From contig JBGAOO010000001.1 of assembly GCA_044221765.1 (NCBI GenBank), forward strand, positions 1 through 40,301: 40,301 nucleotides of DNA, in the 5' to 3' direction. The stretch is from Usitatibacteraceae bacterium (GTDB lineage: Bacteria; Pseudomonadota; Gammaproteobacteria; Burkholderiales; Usitatibacteraceae). The notes under the pieces were generated by a model, which saw only the letters and a program-made list of their open reading frames with translations, was not told where the DNA came from and did not search any database. The translations under genes and the position numbers were made by a program. Of the stretch, positions 3,064 through 38,919 are shown piece after piece. Positions within the stretch are counted from its first letter, which is position 1. The number at the start of each line of letters is the position of its first letter.

Positions 3064-4242
3064 ATGGACCACGCCCGCCGCAACGTCTTCCTGCTCGCCT
3101 GCTGCCAGGCGCTCCTCTTCACCAACAACGTCACGCTGATCGCGCTGAACGGGCTGGCGGGATTCGCGCTGGCCGACAACAAGGCCCTGGCGACGCTGCC
3201 GGTGACGGGCTACGTGGTGGGCGCGGCGATGTCCACCTACTTCGCCTCCCTGTGGATGAAGCGCGTGGGCCGGCGCGCGGGCTTCTACACGGGCACGGTC
3301 TTCGGCCTGGCGGGCGGGTCCCTCGCGACGCTGGGCATCTACCTGTCGAGCTTCTGGACGCTGGTCGCCGGCACGCTCGTGCTGGGCACCTACAACGCGT
3401 TCGGACAGTACTACCGGTTCGCCGCGGCCGACGCGGCCCCCGTCGCCTGGCGGGCGAAGGCGATCTCCCTCGTGATGGCCGGCGGGCTCGTGGGCGGCAT
3501 CGTCGGCCCGGAGATGAGCAAGTGGACGCGCGACCTGGCGCAGCCGACCTTCCTCGCCTCCTACGCCTCGCTCATCGGCCTGTGCCTCGCCACGATGGCG
3601 ATCCTCGCCGGCCTGCGCATCCCCGACCCCAAGGGCGAGGAGGTGCACGGCGAAACGCGCCCGCTGCCGGAGATCATGGCCCAGCCGGCGTTCATCGTCG
3701 CGGTCGTGGTGGGCGCCATCGGCTACGGCGTGATGAACCTGCTCATGACCTCCACGCCGCTCGCGATGGGCTTCTGCGGGCACCCGTACGCCGCGGCCGC
3801 GAGCGTGATCAGCGCGCACGTGATCGCGATGTTCGGCCCCTCCTTCTTCACCGGCTCGCTCATCCAGCGCTTCGGCGTCGTGAACGTGATGCTCGCGGGC
3901 GTGGCGCTCATGTTCGCGTGCGTGGGGATCGCGCTCTCGGGCCAGCAGGTGACGCAGTTCTGGCTCTCGCTGGTGCTGCTGGGCCTGGGCTGGAACTTCA
4001 TGTTCGTGGGCGGCACGACGCTCCTCACCGAGTCCTACCGTCCCGCCGAGAAGGCCAAGGCGCAGGGGGCGAACGAGATCCTGGTCTTCTGCACCACGGC
4101 CACCTCGTCCTTCGCCTCCGGCGTGCTCGTGAACACCGCCGGCTGGAACACCCTCAACTACGTGGCGCTGCCCTTCCTCGCGATCGCCGGTCTCGCCGCG
4201 CTCTGGCTCGCGCATCGCAGGCGAGCGGCCGTGCCCGCCTGA
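3064..4242 (+). CDS. MFS transporter
   Basis: 392 aa with about 12 hydrophobic segments. MFS-like loop motif MKRVGRRAG after TM2. Codon usage (high GC3) matches the host. Confidence 0.85.
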   Translation: MDHARRNVFLLACCQALLFTNNVTLIALNGLAGFALADNKALATLPVTGYVVGAAMSTYFASLWMKRVGRRAGFYTGTVFGLAGGSLATLGIYLSSFWTLVAGTLVLGTYNAFGQYYRFAAADAAPVAWRAKAISLVMAGGLVGGIVGPEMSKWTRDLAQPTFLASYASLIGLCLATMAILAGLRIPDPKGEEVHGETRPLPEIMAQPAFIVAVVVGAIGYGVMNLLMTSTPLAMGFCGHPYAAAASVISAHVIAMFGPSFFTGSLIQRFGVVNVMLAGVALMFACVGIALSGQQVTQFWLSLVLLGLGWNFMFVGGTTLLTESYRPAEKAKAQGANEILVFCTTATSSFASGVLVNTAGWNTLNYVALPFLAIAGLAALWLAHRRRAAVPA

Positions 4243-7721: not shown

Positions 7722-8614
7722 GGGCGGCCGATCTCGTCCGCCTCGTCGCGCTCGCGGCGATCTGGGGCGGCTCGTATCTCTTCATGCGCATCGCCGTGCC
7801 CCACGTGGGCGCGGCCTGGCTCGTCGAAGGGCGCACGCTCGCCGGCGGCCTCGTGATGGCCGCCTTCCTCGTCGCCACGCAGCGCGGCTCGGGCCTGGCG
7901 AGGCACTGGCGCGGCTACCTCGTGATGGGCGTGGTGGGCGTCGCGGCGCCCTTCTGGCTGATCGGCACCGCGGTGAAGACCATCGACGCCTCGACGGCCG
8001 CGATCCTGAACGCCACCTCGCCCATCTTCTCGGCGATCGTCGCCGCGATCTGGATCCGCGAGCGCCTCACGGCGGAGAAGGTCGCGGGCATCGCGCTCTC
8101 GATCGCGGGCATCGCGGTGCTCGTGGGCTGGACGCCCAGGCCGATGACGCACGCGGAGCTGCTCGCATGCGCGATGTCGCTCACGGCCTGCGCCTGCTAC
8201 GGATTCATCGCGGTGTTCACGAAGGTGCACATGAAGGACGCGCCCTCGGCGGCCCTCTCGGCGGCCAGCTGCCTCGTGGCGGCCCTCGCGATGGCGCCCT
8301 TCACGCCGTGGGAGGTGCTCGCCTCTCCCGTGCCCGCGGGCGCCTGGCTCGCCGTGCTAGCGCTCGGCGTGGTGTGCACCGGCTACGCGTTCATCCTCTA
8401 CTATCGCCTCATCCGCGAGCTCGGGCCCGTGAAGGCGCTCACGGTGACGCTGCTCGTGCCCGTGTTCGGCATCCTCTGGGGCGTGCTCTTCCTGGGCGAT
8501 CCCCTCACGCCGGGGCGGGTGGCGGGGTGCGCGATCGTGCTGGCGGGGTGTGCTCTCGCGCTGGGGCTGATGCGATTGCCGGGGCGGCGGGGAGTGACGC
8601 TGCCCAAGAGCTAG
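7718..8614 (+). CDS. DMT superfamily (EamA-like) transporter
   Basis: 10-TM pattern with two EamA halves. N-terminus (TTG)RAADLVRLVALAAIWGGSYLFMRI. The TTG start at 7718 overlaps the ogt stop. The last ~7 codons and the TAG stop lie inside the left arm of repeat element E1. Confidence 0.8.
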   Translation: MRAADLVRLVALAAIWGGSYLFMRIAVPHVGAAWLVEGRTLAGGLVMAAFLVATQRGSGLARHWRGYLVMGVVGVAAPFWLIGTAVKTIDASTAAILNATSPIFSAIVAAIWIRERLTAEKVAGIALSIAGIAVLVGWTPRPMTHAELLACAMSLTACACYGFIAVFTKVHMKDAPSAALSAASCLVAALAMAPFTPWEVLASPVPAGAWLAVLALGVVCTGYAFILYYRLIRELGPVKALTVTLLVPVFGILWGVLFLGDPLTPGRVAGCAIVLAGCALALGLMRLPGRRGVTLPKS

Positions 8615-8802
8615 GACACGGATGAACACGGATGAACACGGATAAGGGCGAATGTGTCCGGGGCTGTTTCTCCGCCGTGAGAATTGCGGGCATCGATTGC
8701 AAGCCACCACGGTTCGACGAAGCGGGCTGAATGCCGCCTATCACGAATCAATCCGTGTTCATCCGTGTTCATCCGTGTCCTAGCTCTTGGGTAGCGTCAC
8801 TC
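8592..8802. repeat. E1: 211-bp composite inverted-repeat element (52-nt arms, 107-nt core), no cargo
   Basis: Left arm 8592-8643 is GAGTGACGCTGCCCAAGAGCTAGGACACGGATGAACACGGATGAACACGGAT. The reverse complement of the right arm (8751-8802) is identical apart from one mismatch (GCTGCCC vs GCTACCC). Confidence 0.9.
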
Positions 8803-13790: not shown

Positions 13791-14284
13791 TAGTGAGTTA
13801 CGCCACCCAGAGGTGGGGACACGGATGAACACGGATGGACACGGATATTGGATTGAAGGGGCAAGCGGACGTTTCACGTTTCCCGAAGTGTCATCGGTGC
13901 AGCGTTTCGGGTAGCGAACTCCCTTGGTGTCGGGTTCCTGGAAAAGGTCTATGAGAACGCACTTGCGATCGAGCTACGCCTTGCCGGCCATGAAGTCGAG
14001 CAGCAACGCACGGTCGACGTGCGATACCGATGCGAGATCGTCGGCATCTACCACGCGGACCTCGTGGTCGACCGCTGCCTCATCGTCGAGCTCAAGGTGG
14101 CCGAATCCCTGTCCGCCGGTCACAAGGCGCAATGTCTCAATTCCCTCAGGGCATCGGGCCTCGATACCGGCTTGGTCATCAACTTCGGCCGGCCACGCCT
14201 CGAAATCCACCGCATCCTGTCCTGAGCGATCCCTCGACTCATCCGTGTTCATCCGTGTCCCCGCCTTCGGGGCGGCGTCACTCC
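13791..14284. mobile_element. E2: cargo-bearing member of the inverted-repeat family, enclosing a GxxExxY gene
   Basis: Left arm 13791-13846 is TAGTGAGTTACGCCACCCAGAGGTGGGGACACGGATGAACACGGATGGACACGGAT. Right arm 14241-14284 is ATCCGTGTTCATCCGTGTCCCCGCCTTCGGGGCGGCGTCACTCC, an imperfect reverse complement. The interior is visibly lower in GC and GC3 than the flanking liv genes. Confidence 0.8.
13857..14225 (+). pseudogene. GxxExxY protein (PD-(D/E)XK nuclease fold, PDDEXK_3/TIGR04256-like), nearly full length but without a usable start codon
   Basis: The frame reads ..SRSVIGAAFRVANSLGVGFLEKVYENALAIELRLAGHEVEQQRTVDVRYRCEIVGIYHADLVVDRCLIVELKVAESLSAGHKAQCLNSLRASGLDTGLVINFGRPRLEIHRILS*. It contains the GxxExxY motif and a D..(I/V)ELK nuclease core. 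There is no ATG, GTG or TTG in frame between the stop at 13854-13856 and GTG 14019. The 68-aa track ORF is only the C-terminal half. Confidence 0.75.
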
Positions 14285-14312
14285 CCGCCGATAGCCCGGC
14301 CACTACCGCCAA

Positions 14313-15401: not shown

Positions 15402-16189
15402 GCGCCGCCGCGCCCATCCTCGAGATCGAGCACGTCACCAAGCGCTTCGGCGGGCTCACCGCGCTCTCCGGGGTGAGCTTCTCCATCCGCCGCGGCGAGA
15501 TCTACGGCCTCATCGGCCCCAACGGCGCGGGCAAGACCACGCTCTTCAACGTGCTCACCGGCCTGTACCGCCACGACGAGGGCCAGTTCCGCTTCGAGGG
15601 CGCGGCGCTGCAGGACGCGACGCCGGACCGCATCGCCGCGCTCGGCATCGCCCGCACCTTCCAGAACATCCGCCTGTTCGCGAACCTCTCCGCGCTGGAG
15701 AACGTGATGATCGGCCGGCACGTGCGCACGAAGGCCGGCGTGCTGGGCGCCATCCTGCGCGATCCGCGCACGCGCGCCGAGGAGGCCGCGATCAACCGAC
15801 GCGCCCACGAGCTGCTCGACTACGTGGGCATCGGCGCGCGCGGCAACGAGCTCGCCCGCCACCTGCCCTACGGGGACCAGCGCCGCCTGGAGATCGCCCG
15901 CGCCCTTGCCACGGACCCGCGCCTCATCGCCCTCGACGAGCCCGCGGCGGGCATGAACGCCACGGAGAAGCAGGAGCTGCGCGTGCTCCTGGAATCCATC
16001 CGCCGCGACGGCACCACCATCCTCATCATCGAGCACGACATGCGCCTGGTGCTGGGCCTGTGCGACCGCGTGCTCGTGCTCGACTACGGCAAGCGCATCG
16101 CCGAGGGCGTCCCCGCCGACGTGCGGCGCGATCCGAAGGTGATCGAGGCTTACCTCGGCGCGCAACATGCCGCGACCGATGTCGAGTGA
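15398..16189 (+). CDS. livG: branched-chain amino acid ABC transporter ATP-binding protein LivG
   Basis: Walker A GPNGAGKTT, signature LPYGDQRRLEIARAL, Walker B LIALDEPAAGM. The ATG overlaps the livM stop (ATGA). Its TGA stop (16187-16189) lies inside the GAGTGAC start of element E3. Confidence 0.9.
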   Translation: MSAAAPILEIEHVTKRFGGLTALSGVSFSIRRGEIYGLIGPNGAGKTTLFNVLTGLYRHDEGQFRFEGAALQDATPDRIAALGIARTFQNIRLFANLSALENVMIGRHVRTKAGVLGAILRDPRTRAEEAAINRRAHELLDYVGIGARGNELARHLPYGDQRRLEIARALATDPRLIALDEPAAGMNATEKQELRVLLESIRRDGTTILIIEHDMRLVLGLCDRVLVLDYGKRIAEGVPADVRRDPKVIEAYLGAQHAATDVE

Positions 16190-16462
16190 CGCTACCCAAA
16201 GGCAAGGACACGGATGAACACGGATGAACACGGATCAAAATCGAATGGAGCGCCACGAACCGATCGCTGTTGCGTGCTGTTCGACCGCTCATGAGCCACT
16301 GAATGCCGTGCGGACCGGATTGGCCATCGCAATTTCAGAATCCATCCGTGTTCATCCGTGTTCATCCGTGTCCTTGCCTTTGGGTCGCGTCCTCCCCGCA
16401 GTGTCCTTGCCTTTGGGTCGCGTCACTCCCCGCATGTCCCGGCCTTTGGGTAGCGTCACTCC
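16184..16462. repeat. E3: 212-bp inverted-repeat element (52-nt arms, 108-nt core) plus two extra tandem copies of the 33-nt terminal module
   Basis: Left arm 16184-16235 is GAGTGACGCTACCCAAAGGCAAGGACACGGATGAACACGGATGAACACGGAT. Right arm 16344-16395. The module GTGTCCTTGCCTTTGGGTCGCGTC(A)CTCC recurs at 16368, 16401 and (diverged) 16434, a 33-nt period. Confidence 0.9.
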
Positions 16463-16465
16463 CCC

Positions 16466-17173
16466 ATGCCCATGCTGAAACTGGAAAGCGTCGAGGTCCA
16501 CTACGGCGGCATCCGCGCCGTGAAGGGCATCGACCTGTACGTGGAGCAGGGCGAGCTGGTGTGCCTCATCGGCGCCAACGGCGCGGGCAAGACGACCACG
16601 CTGCGCGCCATCACGGGCCTCGCCCACGCGAGCGGGCGCATCGTCTACGACGGCGAGGACATCGCGGGCCTGAAGCCGCACCAGATCGCCCGCAAGGGCC
16701 TCGCCCTCGTGCCCGAGGGCCGCGGCGTCTTCCCGCAGCTCACGATCGACGAGAACCTCGCGATGGGTGCCTACGCGCGCGGCGACAAGGCGGGCATCGC
16801 CGCCGACACCGAGCGCGTGTTCCACCTCTTCCCGCGGCTCAAGGAGCGGCGCCGGCAGACGGCGGGCACGATGTCCGGCGGCGAGCAGCAGATGCTCGCG
16901 ATCGGCCGGGCGCTCATGGGCCGGCCGCGCCTGCTGCTGCTCGACGAGCCGAGCATGGGCCTCGCGCCCATCATGGTCGAGCGCATCTTCGAGGTGATCC
17001 GCCTCATCGCCTCCGAGGGCGTCACGATGCTGCTGGTCGAGCAGAACGCGCGCCTCGCGCTGGAGGCGAGCCGGCGCGCGTACGTGCTCGAGAGCGGCCT
17101 GGTCACCCTCTCGGGCGCGGCGGCCGACCTCCTGCACGACCCGCAGGTGCGCAGCGCCTACCTCGGGGAGTGA
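16466..17173 (+). CDS. livF: branched-chain amino acid ABC transporter ATP-binding protein LivF
   Basis: MPMLKLESVEVHYGGIRAVKGIDL.., Walker A GANGAGKTT, signature MSGGEQQMLAIGRAL, Walker B LLLLDEPSMGL. The start could be the second ATG at 16472. Confidence 0.9.
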   Translation: MPMLKLESVEVHYGGIRAVKGIDLYVEQGELVCLIGANGAGKTTTLRAITGLAHASGRIVYDGEDIAGLKPHQIARKGLALVPEGRGVFPQLTIDENLAMGAYARGDKAGIAADTERVFHLFPRLKERRRQTAGTMSGGEQQMLAIGRALMGRPRLLLLDEPSMGLAPIMVERIFEVIRLIASEGVTMLLVEQNARLALEASRRAYVLESGLVTLSGAAADLLHDPQVRSAYLGE

Positions 17174-30597: not shown

Positions 30598-34292
<3,695 letters not shown>

Positions 34293-34296
<4 letters not shown>

Positions 34297-35279
34297 CGCG
34301 CGCCCCGCGCGCGGAAGCGCTCGAGCAGCTCGCGTCCCTCGGGCCCGGCGCGCTTCTCCCACTCCTCGATGGCCTCGCGCGCCGCCTCGGCCAGGCGTGC
34401 CCGGAGCGCCGGCGCGATGGCCGGCGTGATCGTCATGCCGTTCTCCTTCATGCGGGCATGGTTGGCGGCCACGCGCCCCTGCATCGCCTGCCACTGCCGC
34501 GCCTCGGTCTCGGCCGCGATCTCGAGGACCGCCCGGCGCGAGGCCTCGTCCAGCGCCTCGAAGCGCTCCAGGCCCACGGTGGCGAAACTGAGCGGCACCG
34601 CGTAGCCGATCTCGGTGAAGTGCGGCAGGTGCTCCCAGAGCTTGCGGCCGGCGCCGCCATCGCCCGAGGAGAGCACCGCGTCGATCTCCCCGCTCGCGAG
34701 CCTGGCCGGCAGGTCGGAGAAGGACACCACGCTCGCCTTCGCCCCGAGCCGCGCGAAGAGGGCGGTGCCGGTGCCGTCGTAGGTGCGGATCCTCAGCCGC
34801 GAGACCGCGGCCACGGTGTCGGCCGGCGCCTTGGCCCACACGCCCGCGGCGGGCCAGGGCGTGGCGTAGAGCAGCTTCTGCCGGCGCGCGGCGAAGAGGC
34901 GCTCGTACGCGGGCCGCGCCAGGTCGTAGAGGGCGCGCGCCTCGCCCACGTCGGCCGCGAGGAACGGCAGCGAGGAAAGGCCCAGCAGCGGGATGTCCGC
35001 CCCGAGCGCGCCGCCGAAGGTGTCGGCCATCGCGACCTTGCCCTCGGCCACCGCCGCCACCTGCTCGCGCGACTTCCACCCGAGCTTCGCGTCGGGCATG
35101 GCGATGACCGCGAGCTTGCCGTGCAGGCGCTCGCCCACCCGCCTGGCGAAGTACGCGTCGCCCTCGGCGGTGAGCGATGTCGCGGGATACTCGTTCGCGA
35201 TGGCCCATTCCTGCGCCGGGTGGTGCGCGCACGCGCTGGCGGAAACGGCGATGAACGCGAGGGCAAGGGCGGTTCGCAA
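34293..35279 (-). CDS. TRAP transporter substrate-binding protein (DctP family), orphan copy co-transcribed with the oxoprolinase
   Basis: Signal peptide (TTG)RTALALAFIAVSASACA with GGGAGA 7 nt upstream (alternative ATG at 35354). EWAIANEYPATSLTAEGDAYFARRV...LYATPWPAAGVWAK...IRTYDGTGTALFARLGA parallels the DctP paralog at 35475. Confidence 0.8.
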
Positions 35280-35474
35280 GACGATTCTCCCGGGGGACGC
35301 GAGGGGCGGTGGCACGCGCGGGCCCGAAGCAGGCCGCCCGGCGCGCGACAACATTTTGACACGGGGGGACGCGCTTGCTAGTTTCCGGGGTGTGCCGCGC
35401 CCGCCCGACGGGCGCCCGGCTGCCCGCCACCCCCGGACCCCCGAACTTCCCCACCACCCCCAGGAGAGCCGATC

Positions 35475-38328: not shown

Positions 38329-38919
38329 TCAGTCGTGGTGCCGGCCGCGGCCCATCCCCGCGCCCATGCCGCCCATCGCGCCCGGGCCATGCATCCCGCC
38401 CCGCTGGTCGATGATCGCCTTCTGCTCCTTCGTGAGCGAACCGTAGAGCTCGCCCAGGGACTTCGCCATCGACGCCATCGCCGCGCCGCGCTGCTGCATC
38501 TGCGCCGCGTGCTGCGCCATGCGCTCGGGTGCCGTCGGCACCGCCGCGCCTTCCTGCGCCTTGGCACGCGCGGGATGCAGGGCGCCCGCCTGCGATTTCG
38601 TCGCGTCCGCGAACTTCTTCCAGGCGCCTTCCTGGTCGGCGGTGATCTTCAGCCGGGATTTCAGGATGACCAGGTGGGCTTCCGCGCGGGCGGCGGGATC
38701 CACGTCGGCCATCGGGCCGTGCCCCGGGCCCATGCCGCGACCGGCGCCCGGGCCGTGCCCCGGTCCCATGCCCATGCCGTGCCCGGGACCCATGCCCATG
38801 CCCTGCCCGGGACCCATGCCATGGCCGGGGCCGCCCGCGGGTTGCGCCTGCGCGAGCGCCGAGAAAGCCAATGCCACGCCGGCGACGAGCCCGGCCACTG
38901 CCTTGTGATGTCGATTCAT
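38329..38919 (-). CDS. periplasmic Spy/CpxP/ZraP-family (LTxxQ) protein with Gly/His/Met-rich repeats
   Basis: Signal peptide MNRHHKAVAGLVAGVALAFSALAQA. N-terminal GPGHGMGPGQGMGMGPGHGMGMGPGHGPGAGRGMGPGHGP. Helical core with LTKEQKAII. C-terminal GGMHGPGAMGGMGAGMGRGRHHD resembles the ZraP tail. Divergent from an OmpR-type RR/HK pair. Confidence 0.8.
   Translation of the reverse strand: MNRHHKAVAGLVAGVALAFSALAQAQPAGGPGHGMGPGQGMGMGPGHGMGMGPGHGPGAGRGMGPGHGPMADVDPAARAEAHLVILKSRLKITADQEGAWKKFADATKSQAGALHPARAKAQEGAAVPTAPERMAQHAAQMQQRGAAMASMAKSLGELYGSLTKEQKAIIDQRGGMHGPGAMGGMGAGMGRGRHHD

Follow-up and report, generated by a model that had tools for sequence, protein, structure and literature searches.

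Correia elements are confined to one genus, and we know of no autonomous parent of them. RNase III cuts the stem that their terminal inverted repeats (TIRs) form, and the elements have been reported to invert; enterobacterial repetitive intergenic consensus (ERIC) elements affect the fate of mRNA, and Rickettsia palindromic elements (RPEs) are inserted in frame in open reading frames (ORFs) (PMC10969869). Here, we analyzed a long palindrome, E3, between livG and livF in a 40,301-nt stretch of DNA from Usitatibacteraceae bacterium (assembly GCA_044221765.1, contig JBGAOO010000001.1, positions 1 to 40,301; the whole stretch analyzed is called the window). The window contains three full elements (E1, E2, and E3) and one degenerate copy within 40 kb. 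E3 belongs to a family of palindromic elements as a miniature copy without cargo; the full-length form (E2) bears a predicted nuclease gene. On balance, we lean towards a reading of E3 as an element like a miniature inverted-repeat transposable element (MITE), of which the symmetry is kept mainly by exchange at the DNA level from arm to arm and from copy to copy, and of which the triplicated end is a junction duplication. The E-elements have several of the attributes by which MITEs are recognized, namely, TIRs, a small size without a transposase gene, several copies, and presence/absence polymorphism. As for an autonomous parent, the longer, same-armed form E2 exists, and its only gene encodes a 127-aa PD-(D/E)XK protein, not a known transposase.

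By analogy, E3 would work most like the transcribed palindromic MITEs of the Correia and ERIC types. The likeness to Correia elements lies in the intergenic or operon-internal position of elements of ~100-200 bp, long TIRs, co-transcription, and inversion, which is seen here for the loop in L248 versus L249 (loci fetched from other sources are given L numbers; the syntenic loci among them were found via cargo and LivF homologues in metagenome-assembled genomes of related Betaproteobacteria/Usitatibacteraceae). However, the sequences are unrelated; the outer module here is variable and adjoins tandem decamer arrays in each arm; neither a TA target duplication nor an integration host factor (IHF) site is evident; there is a full-length form with a PD-(D/E)XK gene; and the family as a whole occurs in many phyla. 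ERIC elements, or intergenic repeat units (IRUs), are also imperfect palindromes (100-130 bp) in transcribed intergenic regions of operons, but they have neither tandem-decamer arms nor an associated protein gene, and their arms are far less perfect. An RPE-like case is the degenerate fourth copy (31770-31890), which is in frame within an oxoprolinase gene; this is the single such case here, whereas the other copies are at gene junctions. What differs from these systems is thus the tandem-decamer arms, the PD-(D/E)XK gene with its start codon in the arm, and the cross-phylum spread.

Three further systems were compared. Repetitive extragenic palindromes (REPs) and bacterial interspersed mosaic elements (BIMEs) with REP-associated tyrosine transposases (RAYTs), tagged by GTAG/CGTC (PMC3733652), are likewise short GC-rich intergenic palindromes, and the right outer module contains GTAG and CGTC (GGGTAGCGTCAC). 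However, REPs are self-palindromes of 20-40 bp, whereas the outer module here pairs only with the opposite arm ~200 nt away. The REP/RAYT reading of GTAG/CGTC was rejected because the outer module is not self-complementary, and no RAYT-like gene was associated with the elements here. The intervening sequences (IVSs) of 23S rRNA (e.g., the Coxiella IVS with S23p, PMC4990558) are similar in being small selfish cassettes bounded by inverted repeats, with a stem in the transcript and possibly a small ORF, but the cargo of an IVS is a four-helix bundle and not a PD-(D/E)XK protein. The IVS reading found no support here, as E1-E3 lie between protein genes and six conserved rRNA motifs were absent from all the fetched loci scanned. 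Arm-to-arm conversion and quasipalindrome template switching are known from chloroplast inverted repeats, Y-chromosome palindromes, and quasipalindrome hotspots of E. coli. Such conversion in large palindromes is likewise a DNA-level process that keeps the repeats identical, inverts the spacer, and mimics compensatory changes; here the scale is tens of bp, and the mechanism is proposed from the sequence.

The arms in the window follow one plan, i.e., an outer module (GAGTGACGC-NN-CCC-variable-GG) and then about three tandem decamers (ACACGGATGA). The parts of E3 are as follows.

16184-16465, the whole element E3, a long palindrome of 282 nt at the livG/livF junction
16184-16207, forward strand, left outer module GAGTGACGCTACCCAAAGGCAAGG, with the livG stop codon TGA at 16187-16189 and the variable sub-terminal segment AAAGGCAAGG at 16198-16207
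16208-16235, forward strand, left decamer array, ACACGGATGA in 2.8 copies (period 10, 100% matches)
16236-16343, no strand, central loop of 108 nt without ORF, not alignable with the loops of orthologous elements
16344-16371, forward strand, right decamer array of TCATCCGTGT repeats, complementary to the left array
16368-16400, forward strand, right outer module copy 1 (GTGTCCTTGCCTTTGGGTCGCGTC-CTCCCCGCA), exact complement of the left sub-terminal segment
16401-16434, forward strand, right outer module copy 2
16435-16465, forward strand, right outer module copy 3 (TGTCCCGGCCTTTGGGTAGCGTCACTCCCCC), complementary without mismatch, in its terminal half, to the left terminus GAGTGACGCTACCC

With repeat tools, the arms were delimited at 16188-16235 and 16344-16391 (48 nt each, 98% complementary, spacer of 108 nt). 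The stop codon of livG is located within the left terminus of E3, and the livF ATG (16466) lies four bases 3' of copy 3, within a (CCCATG)x2 duplication. The fold energies of full E3, which the preliminary description of this DNA (made from the letters alone) had proposed to calculate, were far below expectation: -148.7 kcal/mol for RNA (z = -10.0) and -86.9 kcal/mol for DNA (z = -12.0). Both centroid structures, like the minimum-energy DNA fold, have copy 1 paired with the inner 42 nt of the left arm and copy 3 with its ten terminal nt, and the intervening material is bulged out. Copies 1-2 match the left sub-terminal segment and copy 3 the left terminus, so that the left arm is effectively split-paired. 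No promoter or terminator was found in a scan of 16000-16600, and E3 is not an intrinsic terminator because no T-run follows the stem.

The three tandem outer modules in E3, as described previously, were confirmed with Tandem Repeats Finder (16368-16464; period 33, 2.9 copies, 92% matches, score 159). Each 33-nt unit combines four bases from the end of the decamer array with the outer module and the flank CCCCGCA; copy 1 in the window has one A deleted and reads GTCCTCC, and the final flank CCCCCATGCCC resembles the inter-unit junction CCCCGCATGTCC. The resemblance of the third copy to the E1 terminus comes down to one base (GGGTAGCGTCACTC vs GGGTCGCGTCACTC; GGGTAGC vs GGGTCGC), and the same base complements the left terminus of E3 itself (GAGTGACGCTACCC). 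Duplications were also found in relatives: in E1 of L244, a second, partial right arm follows a decayed copy of the 5' end of the downstream gene; E3 of L245 has a second complete right arm; in E2 of L244 (10353-10510), a 58-nt unit is repeated three times over the last codons of the cargo and the downstream bases, just inside the right arm; and small duplications at the livF start are present in L252 and the window. Among the events that had been suggested for the triplication (slippage, repeated end-processing, or nested insertion), slippage or repeated end events are reasonable in view of the flank bases in the units and the duplications in relatives, whereas clean nested insertions do not fit; on sequence comparison, the triplication would fit a junction duplication by slippage or unequal exchange. 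One possibility is that the extra copies free the livF start from the stem.

It is scarcely credible that the similarities arose by chance or that the triplication is an assembly artefact. The latter had been named as a possible refutation, and all that speaks for it is that short-read assemblies may, in general, collapse or expand repeats. Against it, an independent metagenome contig, L121 (ENA ERZ27258485), which is from a different strain by single-nucleotide polymorphisms (SNPs), has the same three modules with copy 1 intact; this assembly therefore did not create the triplication, which is fixed in at least two strains. Against chance, the 18-mer ACACGGATGNACACGGAT occurs 12 times in the 40-kb window (0.07 expected), the fold z-scores for the window elements are -10 to -13, and >8 other assemblies have elements at orthologous sites.

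We then compared the two arms among elements. At the E3 site, the sub-terminal segments (left / right) were as follows.

Window: left AAAGGCAAGG, right CCTTGCCTTT, exact complement (by direct reading)
L244: left AAAGACGGGG, right CCCCGTCTTT, exact complement
L245: left AAGGACGGGG, right CCCCGTCCTT, exact complement
L248: left AAGGGCGAGG, right CCTCGCCCTT, exact complement
L246: left AAGAACGGGG, right CCCCGTCTTT, with G·U and A·C
L249: left AAGGGCGAGG, right CCCCGCACTT, with two mismatches

A covariation check on aligned copies, as had been proposed, was performed with 11 elements and family-wide with 55 distinct elements, and in both the compensated arm changes exceeded those in shuffles. For the 11 elements, the paired cells were 83.4% (80.0±0.7 in shuffles), the changes on both sides were 8 pairs and 19 cells (4.6 and 7.4 in shuffles), and the covariation score was 0.173 (0.100±0.012; reached in 0/500 shuffles); registers slid by 1-3 columns paired only 32-44%. 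The double changes concentrate in columns 17-22 / 51-56, i.e., the sub-terminal segment to which the preliminary description had drawn attention, and only about half of the 11 elements form the outermost 12 pairs. For the 55 elements, the same non-consensus base was present in both arms of the 30-nt arrays 152 times, as against 42.9±6.2 (maximum 67) in 2000 partner shuffles, and in the next 12 nt outward 168 mirrored bases were counted, as against 93±8.6; since the elements are mutually related, these shuffle controls overstate the significance and the figures are not probabilities, but the signal is still clear. The arms of the E-family covary well beyond shuffling.

The sister copies in the window are as follows.

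8592-8802, forward strand, E1, cargo-less, 211 nt without ORF, between an EamA-family gene and a DUF255/thioredoxin-like gene
13795-14283, forward strand, E2, the cargo-bearing full-length form, between livH and livM
13835-14225, forward strand, GxxExxY / PDDEXK_3 nuclease gene of E2, start ATG at 13835 within the second decamer
31770-31890, no strand, degenerate fourth copy, a left arm with three decayed decamers and right-module remnants

The arms of E1 are 52 nt and 98% complementary, and the reading frame of the EamA gene stops at a TAG within the left arm. That the sub-terminal segments of E1 and E3 differ and that each is mirrored in its own opposite arm was borne out, as AAGAGCTAGG / CCTAGCTCTT of E1 are also exact complements. 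The same trend claimed for E2 is true only approximately (CCCAGAGGTGGGG vs CCCCGCCTTCGGGG; one A·C, one G·U, and one U·G). The extension GCGGGGAGTGACGC is common to the left end of E1, the right end of E2, and copies 1-2 of E3 (8585-8600, 14275-14290, and 16420-16434). In E1-left, its GCGGGG is the 3' end of the EamA gene and is conserved in relatives of which the element carries another outer module, which hints that flank bases moved along with the module during exchange. The fourth copy is translated in frame in a fused hydantoinase A/B (oxoprolinase) ORF (minus strand, 30598-35457), to which it adds ~35 residues immediately before a conserved 10-residue motif.

Elements are present at the same three junctions as E1, E2, and E3 in L244, L245, L246, and L248/L249, and at livH/livM and livG/livF in L252 and L254, for which the fetched loci cover the liv operon only. 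The livG/livF site is empty in L255 and L266-L269 (LivF identity 81-87%, about equally close), where the two genes overlap by GTGA (GCGTGAGCCT), and the livH/livM site is empty in L266 (TGAGCATG). In L264, livG/livF (3469-3501) has a 31-nt spacer with a decamer remnant (TCGCCGAT), which looks like a deletion scar; L252, with the same decamer type, has a full element (3786-4001). From the empty sites and the scar, the elements are insertions into translationally coupled junctions and can be lost again. E3 itself is an insertion in the 4-nt livG/livF stop/start overlap GTGA, its left end now providing the livG stop. As for the target site, the empty site reads GCG/TGA/GCC (L255, L266), and a (R)TGA duplication of 3-4 nt is compatible in L244, L245, and L254.

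A conventional MITE, with the arms as TIRs bound by a transposase encoded elsewhere, the match between arms due to a shared binding site, and the modules due to nested or repeated end insertions, is improbable, although the long TIRs, the small size, the several copies in 40 kb, and the polymorphism at orthologous sites would all agree with it, and a genome-specific decamer type (see below) would be expected if the repeats co-evolve with a binding protein. The mirrored variation is in a segment that is not conserved between copies and hence is not a binding-site consensus; no transposase is associated, the 127-aa protein being the sole associated gene product; there is no clear target-site duplication; and the flank bases in the repeat units, together with the decayed gene start in E1 of L244, fit junction duplication and not clean insertion.

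The reading that we favor, exchange at the DNA level, would explain the arm complementarity mainly by gene conversion, template switching, or recombination between arms or copies, and such arm-to-arm and copy-to-copy events would produce mirrored changes without selection on the fold. The same exchange would yield loop flips, changes in decamer number, one decamer variant per genome, and tandem duplications at the right junction. The 85-nt loop of E3 is inverted in L248 (12310-12545) and L250 relative to L249 (12300-12520) and L246 (71/85 matches when inverted; score 57 vs 14.5), while L248 and L249 encode an identical cargo protein. The decamer number is 2 or 3 between near-identical strains. 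The decamers are homogenized genome-wide: the type is genome-specific (ACGCCGATGA in L252 and L264, ACGCAGATAA in L255) and common to the cargo-bearing and cargo-less copies. This is stronger evidence for concerted evolution than the outer module. A check for a foldback origin, in which the loop ends were compared with the cargo 5' region and the cargo-less elements were considered as inverted left-end duplicates, gave scores mostly within noise.

The strong rival is a selected RNA hairpin, in which the element is co-transcribed with the liv operon and arm pairing is maintained, either through cleavage of the ~50-bp stem by RNase III or through the juxtaposition of the livG stop and livF start, which would keep translational coupling; we regard this RNA-level role as plausible but, overall, unlikely to be what keeps the arms matched. 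The preliminary description had concluded that the base pairing itself is what is maintained; the covariation on which it relied is real and agrees with such a role, whereas the step from covariation to a selected RNA or single-stranded DNA fold is not established. E1-E3 are co-oriented with their flanking genes, and so are all six annotated plasmid cargo genes (see below); the ancestral junctions are tight (the GTGA overlap and TGAGCATG); the starts downstream of the elements have no obvious Shine-Dalgarno (SD) sequence; and the stop and start are at the base of the predicted stem, where copy 3 restores perfect terminal pairing beside the livF ATG. Transcripts of Correia elements are cut by RNase III at the TIRs (PMC10969869). 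In the liv transcript, the ~50-bp stem would rejoin the livG stop and the SD-less livF start, and this re-juxtaposition may explain why insertions at such junctions are tolerated. For operon biology, the insertions are exactly at translationally coupled junctions, where a hairpin would restore the proximity of stop and start.

On the other hand, arm mismatches in the oriented elements of the clade show no wobble bias on the sense strand (9 G·U without excess over 13 A·C, plus 7 transversions). Across phyla, the decamers are conserved in their sequence itself, which is more than pairing alone would demand, and they are identical in genomes with a livF dS of 0.30-0.45 and unalignable loops. The outer modules of E2 in L244-L249 (right, TCCAAAGGTTTGCG) are not complementary to each other, yet both are conserved, and only about one element in two forms the terminal 12 pairs. 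Loop inversion and genome-specific decamers need DNA-level events in any case. No Rfam family matched the whole window at the gathering score, and at E <= 10 the E3 region had only RsmY (E = 3) and sR41 (E = 8.7). As a caution on method, mirrored changes in inverted repeats do not alone amount to evidence of a selected RNA structure, as DNA arm exchange gives the same signal.

Several observations, in addition to the relatedness of the elements noted above, weigh against exchange at the DNA level as the main cause. The mismatch-type test is small (29 mismatches) and is compatible with RNA-level selection too. The co-directional cargo in operons argues that transcription, and with it an RNA stage, is of importance to the cargo, if not more widely. 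The cargo gene of L255 is antisense to its neighbors. The similarity of outer modules within genomes is weak (mean distance 1.67 vs 2.47, p ~0.03). In L248/L249, the EamA/DUF255 site and a fourth site (L248 4852-4990 and 18181-18305) carry ACGCAGATGA, whereas E2 and E3 there carry ACACGGATGA, so that the L248 genome contains two decamer subfamilies. Finally, no target-site duplication can be demonstrated; in the window, the inverted repeat includes the TGA, and the right junction is remodelled.

The cargo of E2 belongs to the GxxExxY / PDDEXK_3 family: the ORF matches PF13366 (PDDEXK_3; E = 8e-35, 120.1 bits, cut-off 22) and TIGR04256 ('GxxExxY protein'; E = 1e-36, 125.7 bits, cut-off 35), and it has the D...ExK and GxxExxY motifs. 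The residues G31, E34, Y37, D73, and E83 do not vary among 50 cargo homologues, of which >= 90% also keep K85. The gene is under purifying selection (dN/dS of 0.09-0.21). In the window, a 7-nt tandem duplication (ACGTTTC x2; 13869-13875 / 13876-13882) puts it out of frame, whereas in the near-identical strains L242 and L243 it is intact and encodes 127 aa (P0001) starting with MDTDIGLKG; the frameshift is either a recent inactivation or a sequencing error. The AlphaFold2 model (predicted local distance difference test score 91.5) had Cas4 SSO0001 as the nearest structure (E = 2.5e-4, template modelling score 0.55), with lambda-type exonucleases also found; tRNA-splicing endonucleases matched only at E ~0.1. 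There was no sequence match to the cargo in PDB, and no PADLOC model matched it in a search for defence annotation.

The decamers hold an RBS-like (ribosome-binding-site-like) GGA and the ATG of the nuclease gene, and from one unit to the next the GGA precedes the AUG by 7 nt, a spacing like that of an SD sequence. A decamer-type M[NDHK][TAS][DE] occurs within the first 40 residues in 97 of the 120 closest cargo homologues, and 68 begin with exactly MNTD. As a side observation, the RNA form of the decamer, ACACGGAUGA, would fit the RsmE consensus. The same form resembles the CsrA consensus RUACARGGAUGU from SELEX (systematic evolution of ligands by exponential enrichment; term in PMC4347634). 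A CsrA/RsmE site is nevertheless not favored, as the GGA would be paired in the stem, CsrA is not known from many members of the phyla in which the decamer family occurs, and an SD-like GGA with ATG explains the motif at least equally.

As for the driving force of the exchange, the family nuclease may recognize and cut the decamer arrays, and the breaks would be repaired from the sister arm or from other copies; the stem in the transcript may also occlude the nuclease's own start. Extending this, we put forward, tentatively and with some doubt, that GxxExxY / PDDEXK_3 proteins are the engine of unrecognized cross-phylum selfish palindromic cassettes. The nuclease would recognize and cut its flanking 9-10-mer arrays, which also encode its RBS, start codon, and N-terminus, and would thereby drive homing-like conversion, spread to operon stop/start junctions, homogenization of copies, and correction of arms; E1 and E3 would be non-autonomous riders, and the hairpin would act as a gate on nuclease translation. 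Should the nuclease turn out to be the engine, this would be a new class of element, and, if the link is true, a biological role would be assigned to a very large protein family lacking a known function (7948 matches at E <= 1e-10 among the candidates scored). Full-text searches, confined to open-access papers, turned up nothing on the cargo family beyond mentions that were incidental or gave 'function unknown', and no description of the repeat sequence or element.

The association of gene and repeat was further examined with eight GxxExxY genes on plasmids of cultured bacteria, chosen independently of the repeat. Inverted arrays of 9-10-mers flank the gene in 3/8, namely, in Bacteroides (CACAGAGGA, 24/26), Sphingomonas (CGCGAAGGA, 23/25), and Bernardetia, and a fourth, in Treponema, has a single inverted ACACGGAT unit. 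In the annotated cases, 6/6 genes are co-directional between unrelated housekeeping genes (e.g., fabD/fabG and radA/FAD protein). Note that, in the plasmids L257 (Fusobacteria) and L263 (Prevotella), the gene is flanked by direct, not inverted, upstream-junction repeats; the direct repeat of the Fusobacteria plasmid contains a ATCCGTGT core, a different flank architecture within the family.

The spread beyond the window was examined by scanning one genome per species for exact ACACGGATGNACACGGAT, which gave at least 120 loci. Among the matches listed, the phyla include Verrucomicrobiota, Planctomycetota, Acidobacteriota, Bacteroidota, Nitrospirota, and Chlamydiota, besides several proteobacterial classes; ACACGGATGNACACGGAT was often found as an inverted pair; and there were 68 arm pairs with loops of 13-906 nt. 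All seven loops of 370-523 nt from other phyla among these matches encode GxxExxY proteins, most of which start with MNTD inside the left array. Family-wide, the arms consist of 2-4 tandem decamers (ACACGGATGA) and a lineage-specific outer module. As far as the open-access literature shows, the elements form a new prokaryotic palindromic family, ranging from Verrucomicrobiota to Betaproteobacteria, in which the tandem decamer arms double as the translation start of the cargo. In a metagenome scan with the pattern ACGCNNCCCN{8,11}GACACGGATG, 7/120 among the matches listed were real elements and the remainder were chance matches.

In predicted viral contigs of IMG/VR (L270-L334), the exact 18-mer was found in 65 stretches (~6 estimated by chance); an inverted partner array was present in 19/65, and a cargo gene between the arms in none. 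The miniature form may be carried by phages, or these contigs may be misassigned cellular DNA. Elsewhere in the window, a 24-nt unit (GCCCAGGCCGTGCCCGGGACCCAT) is repeated in tandem at 38746-38827 (3.4 copies, 84% matches); this array, which has nested 6- and 12-nt periods, is unrelated to the elements.

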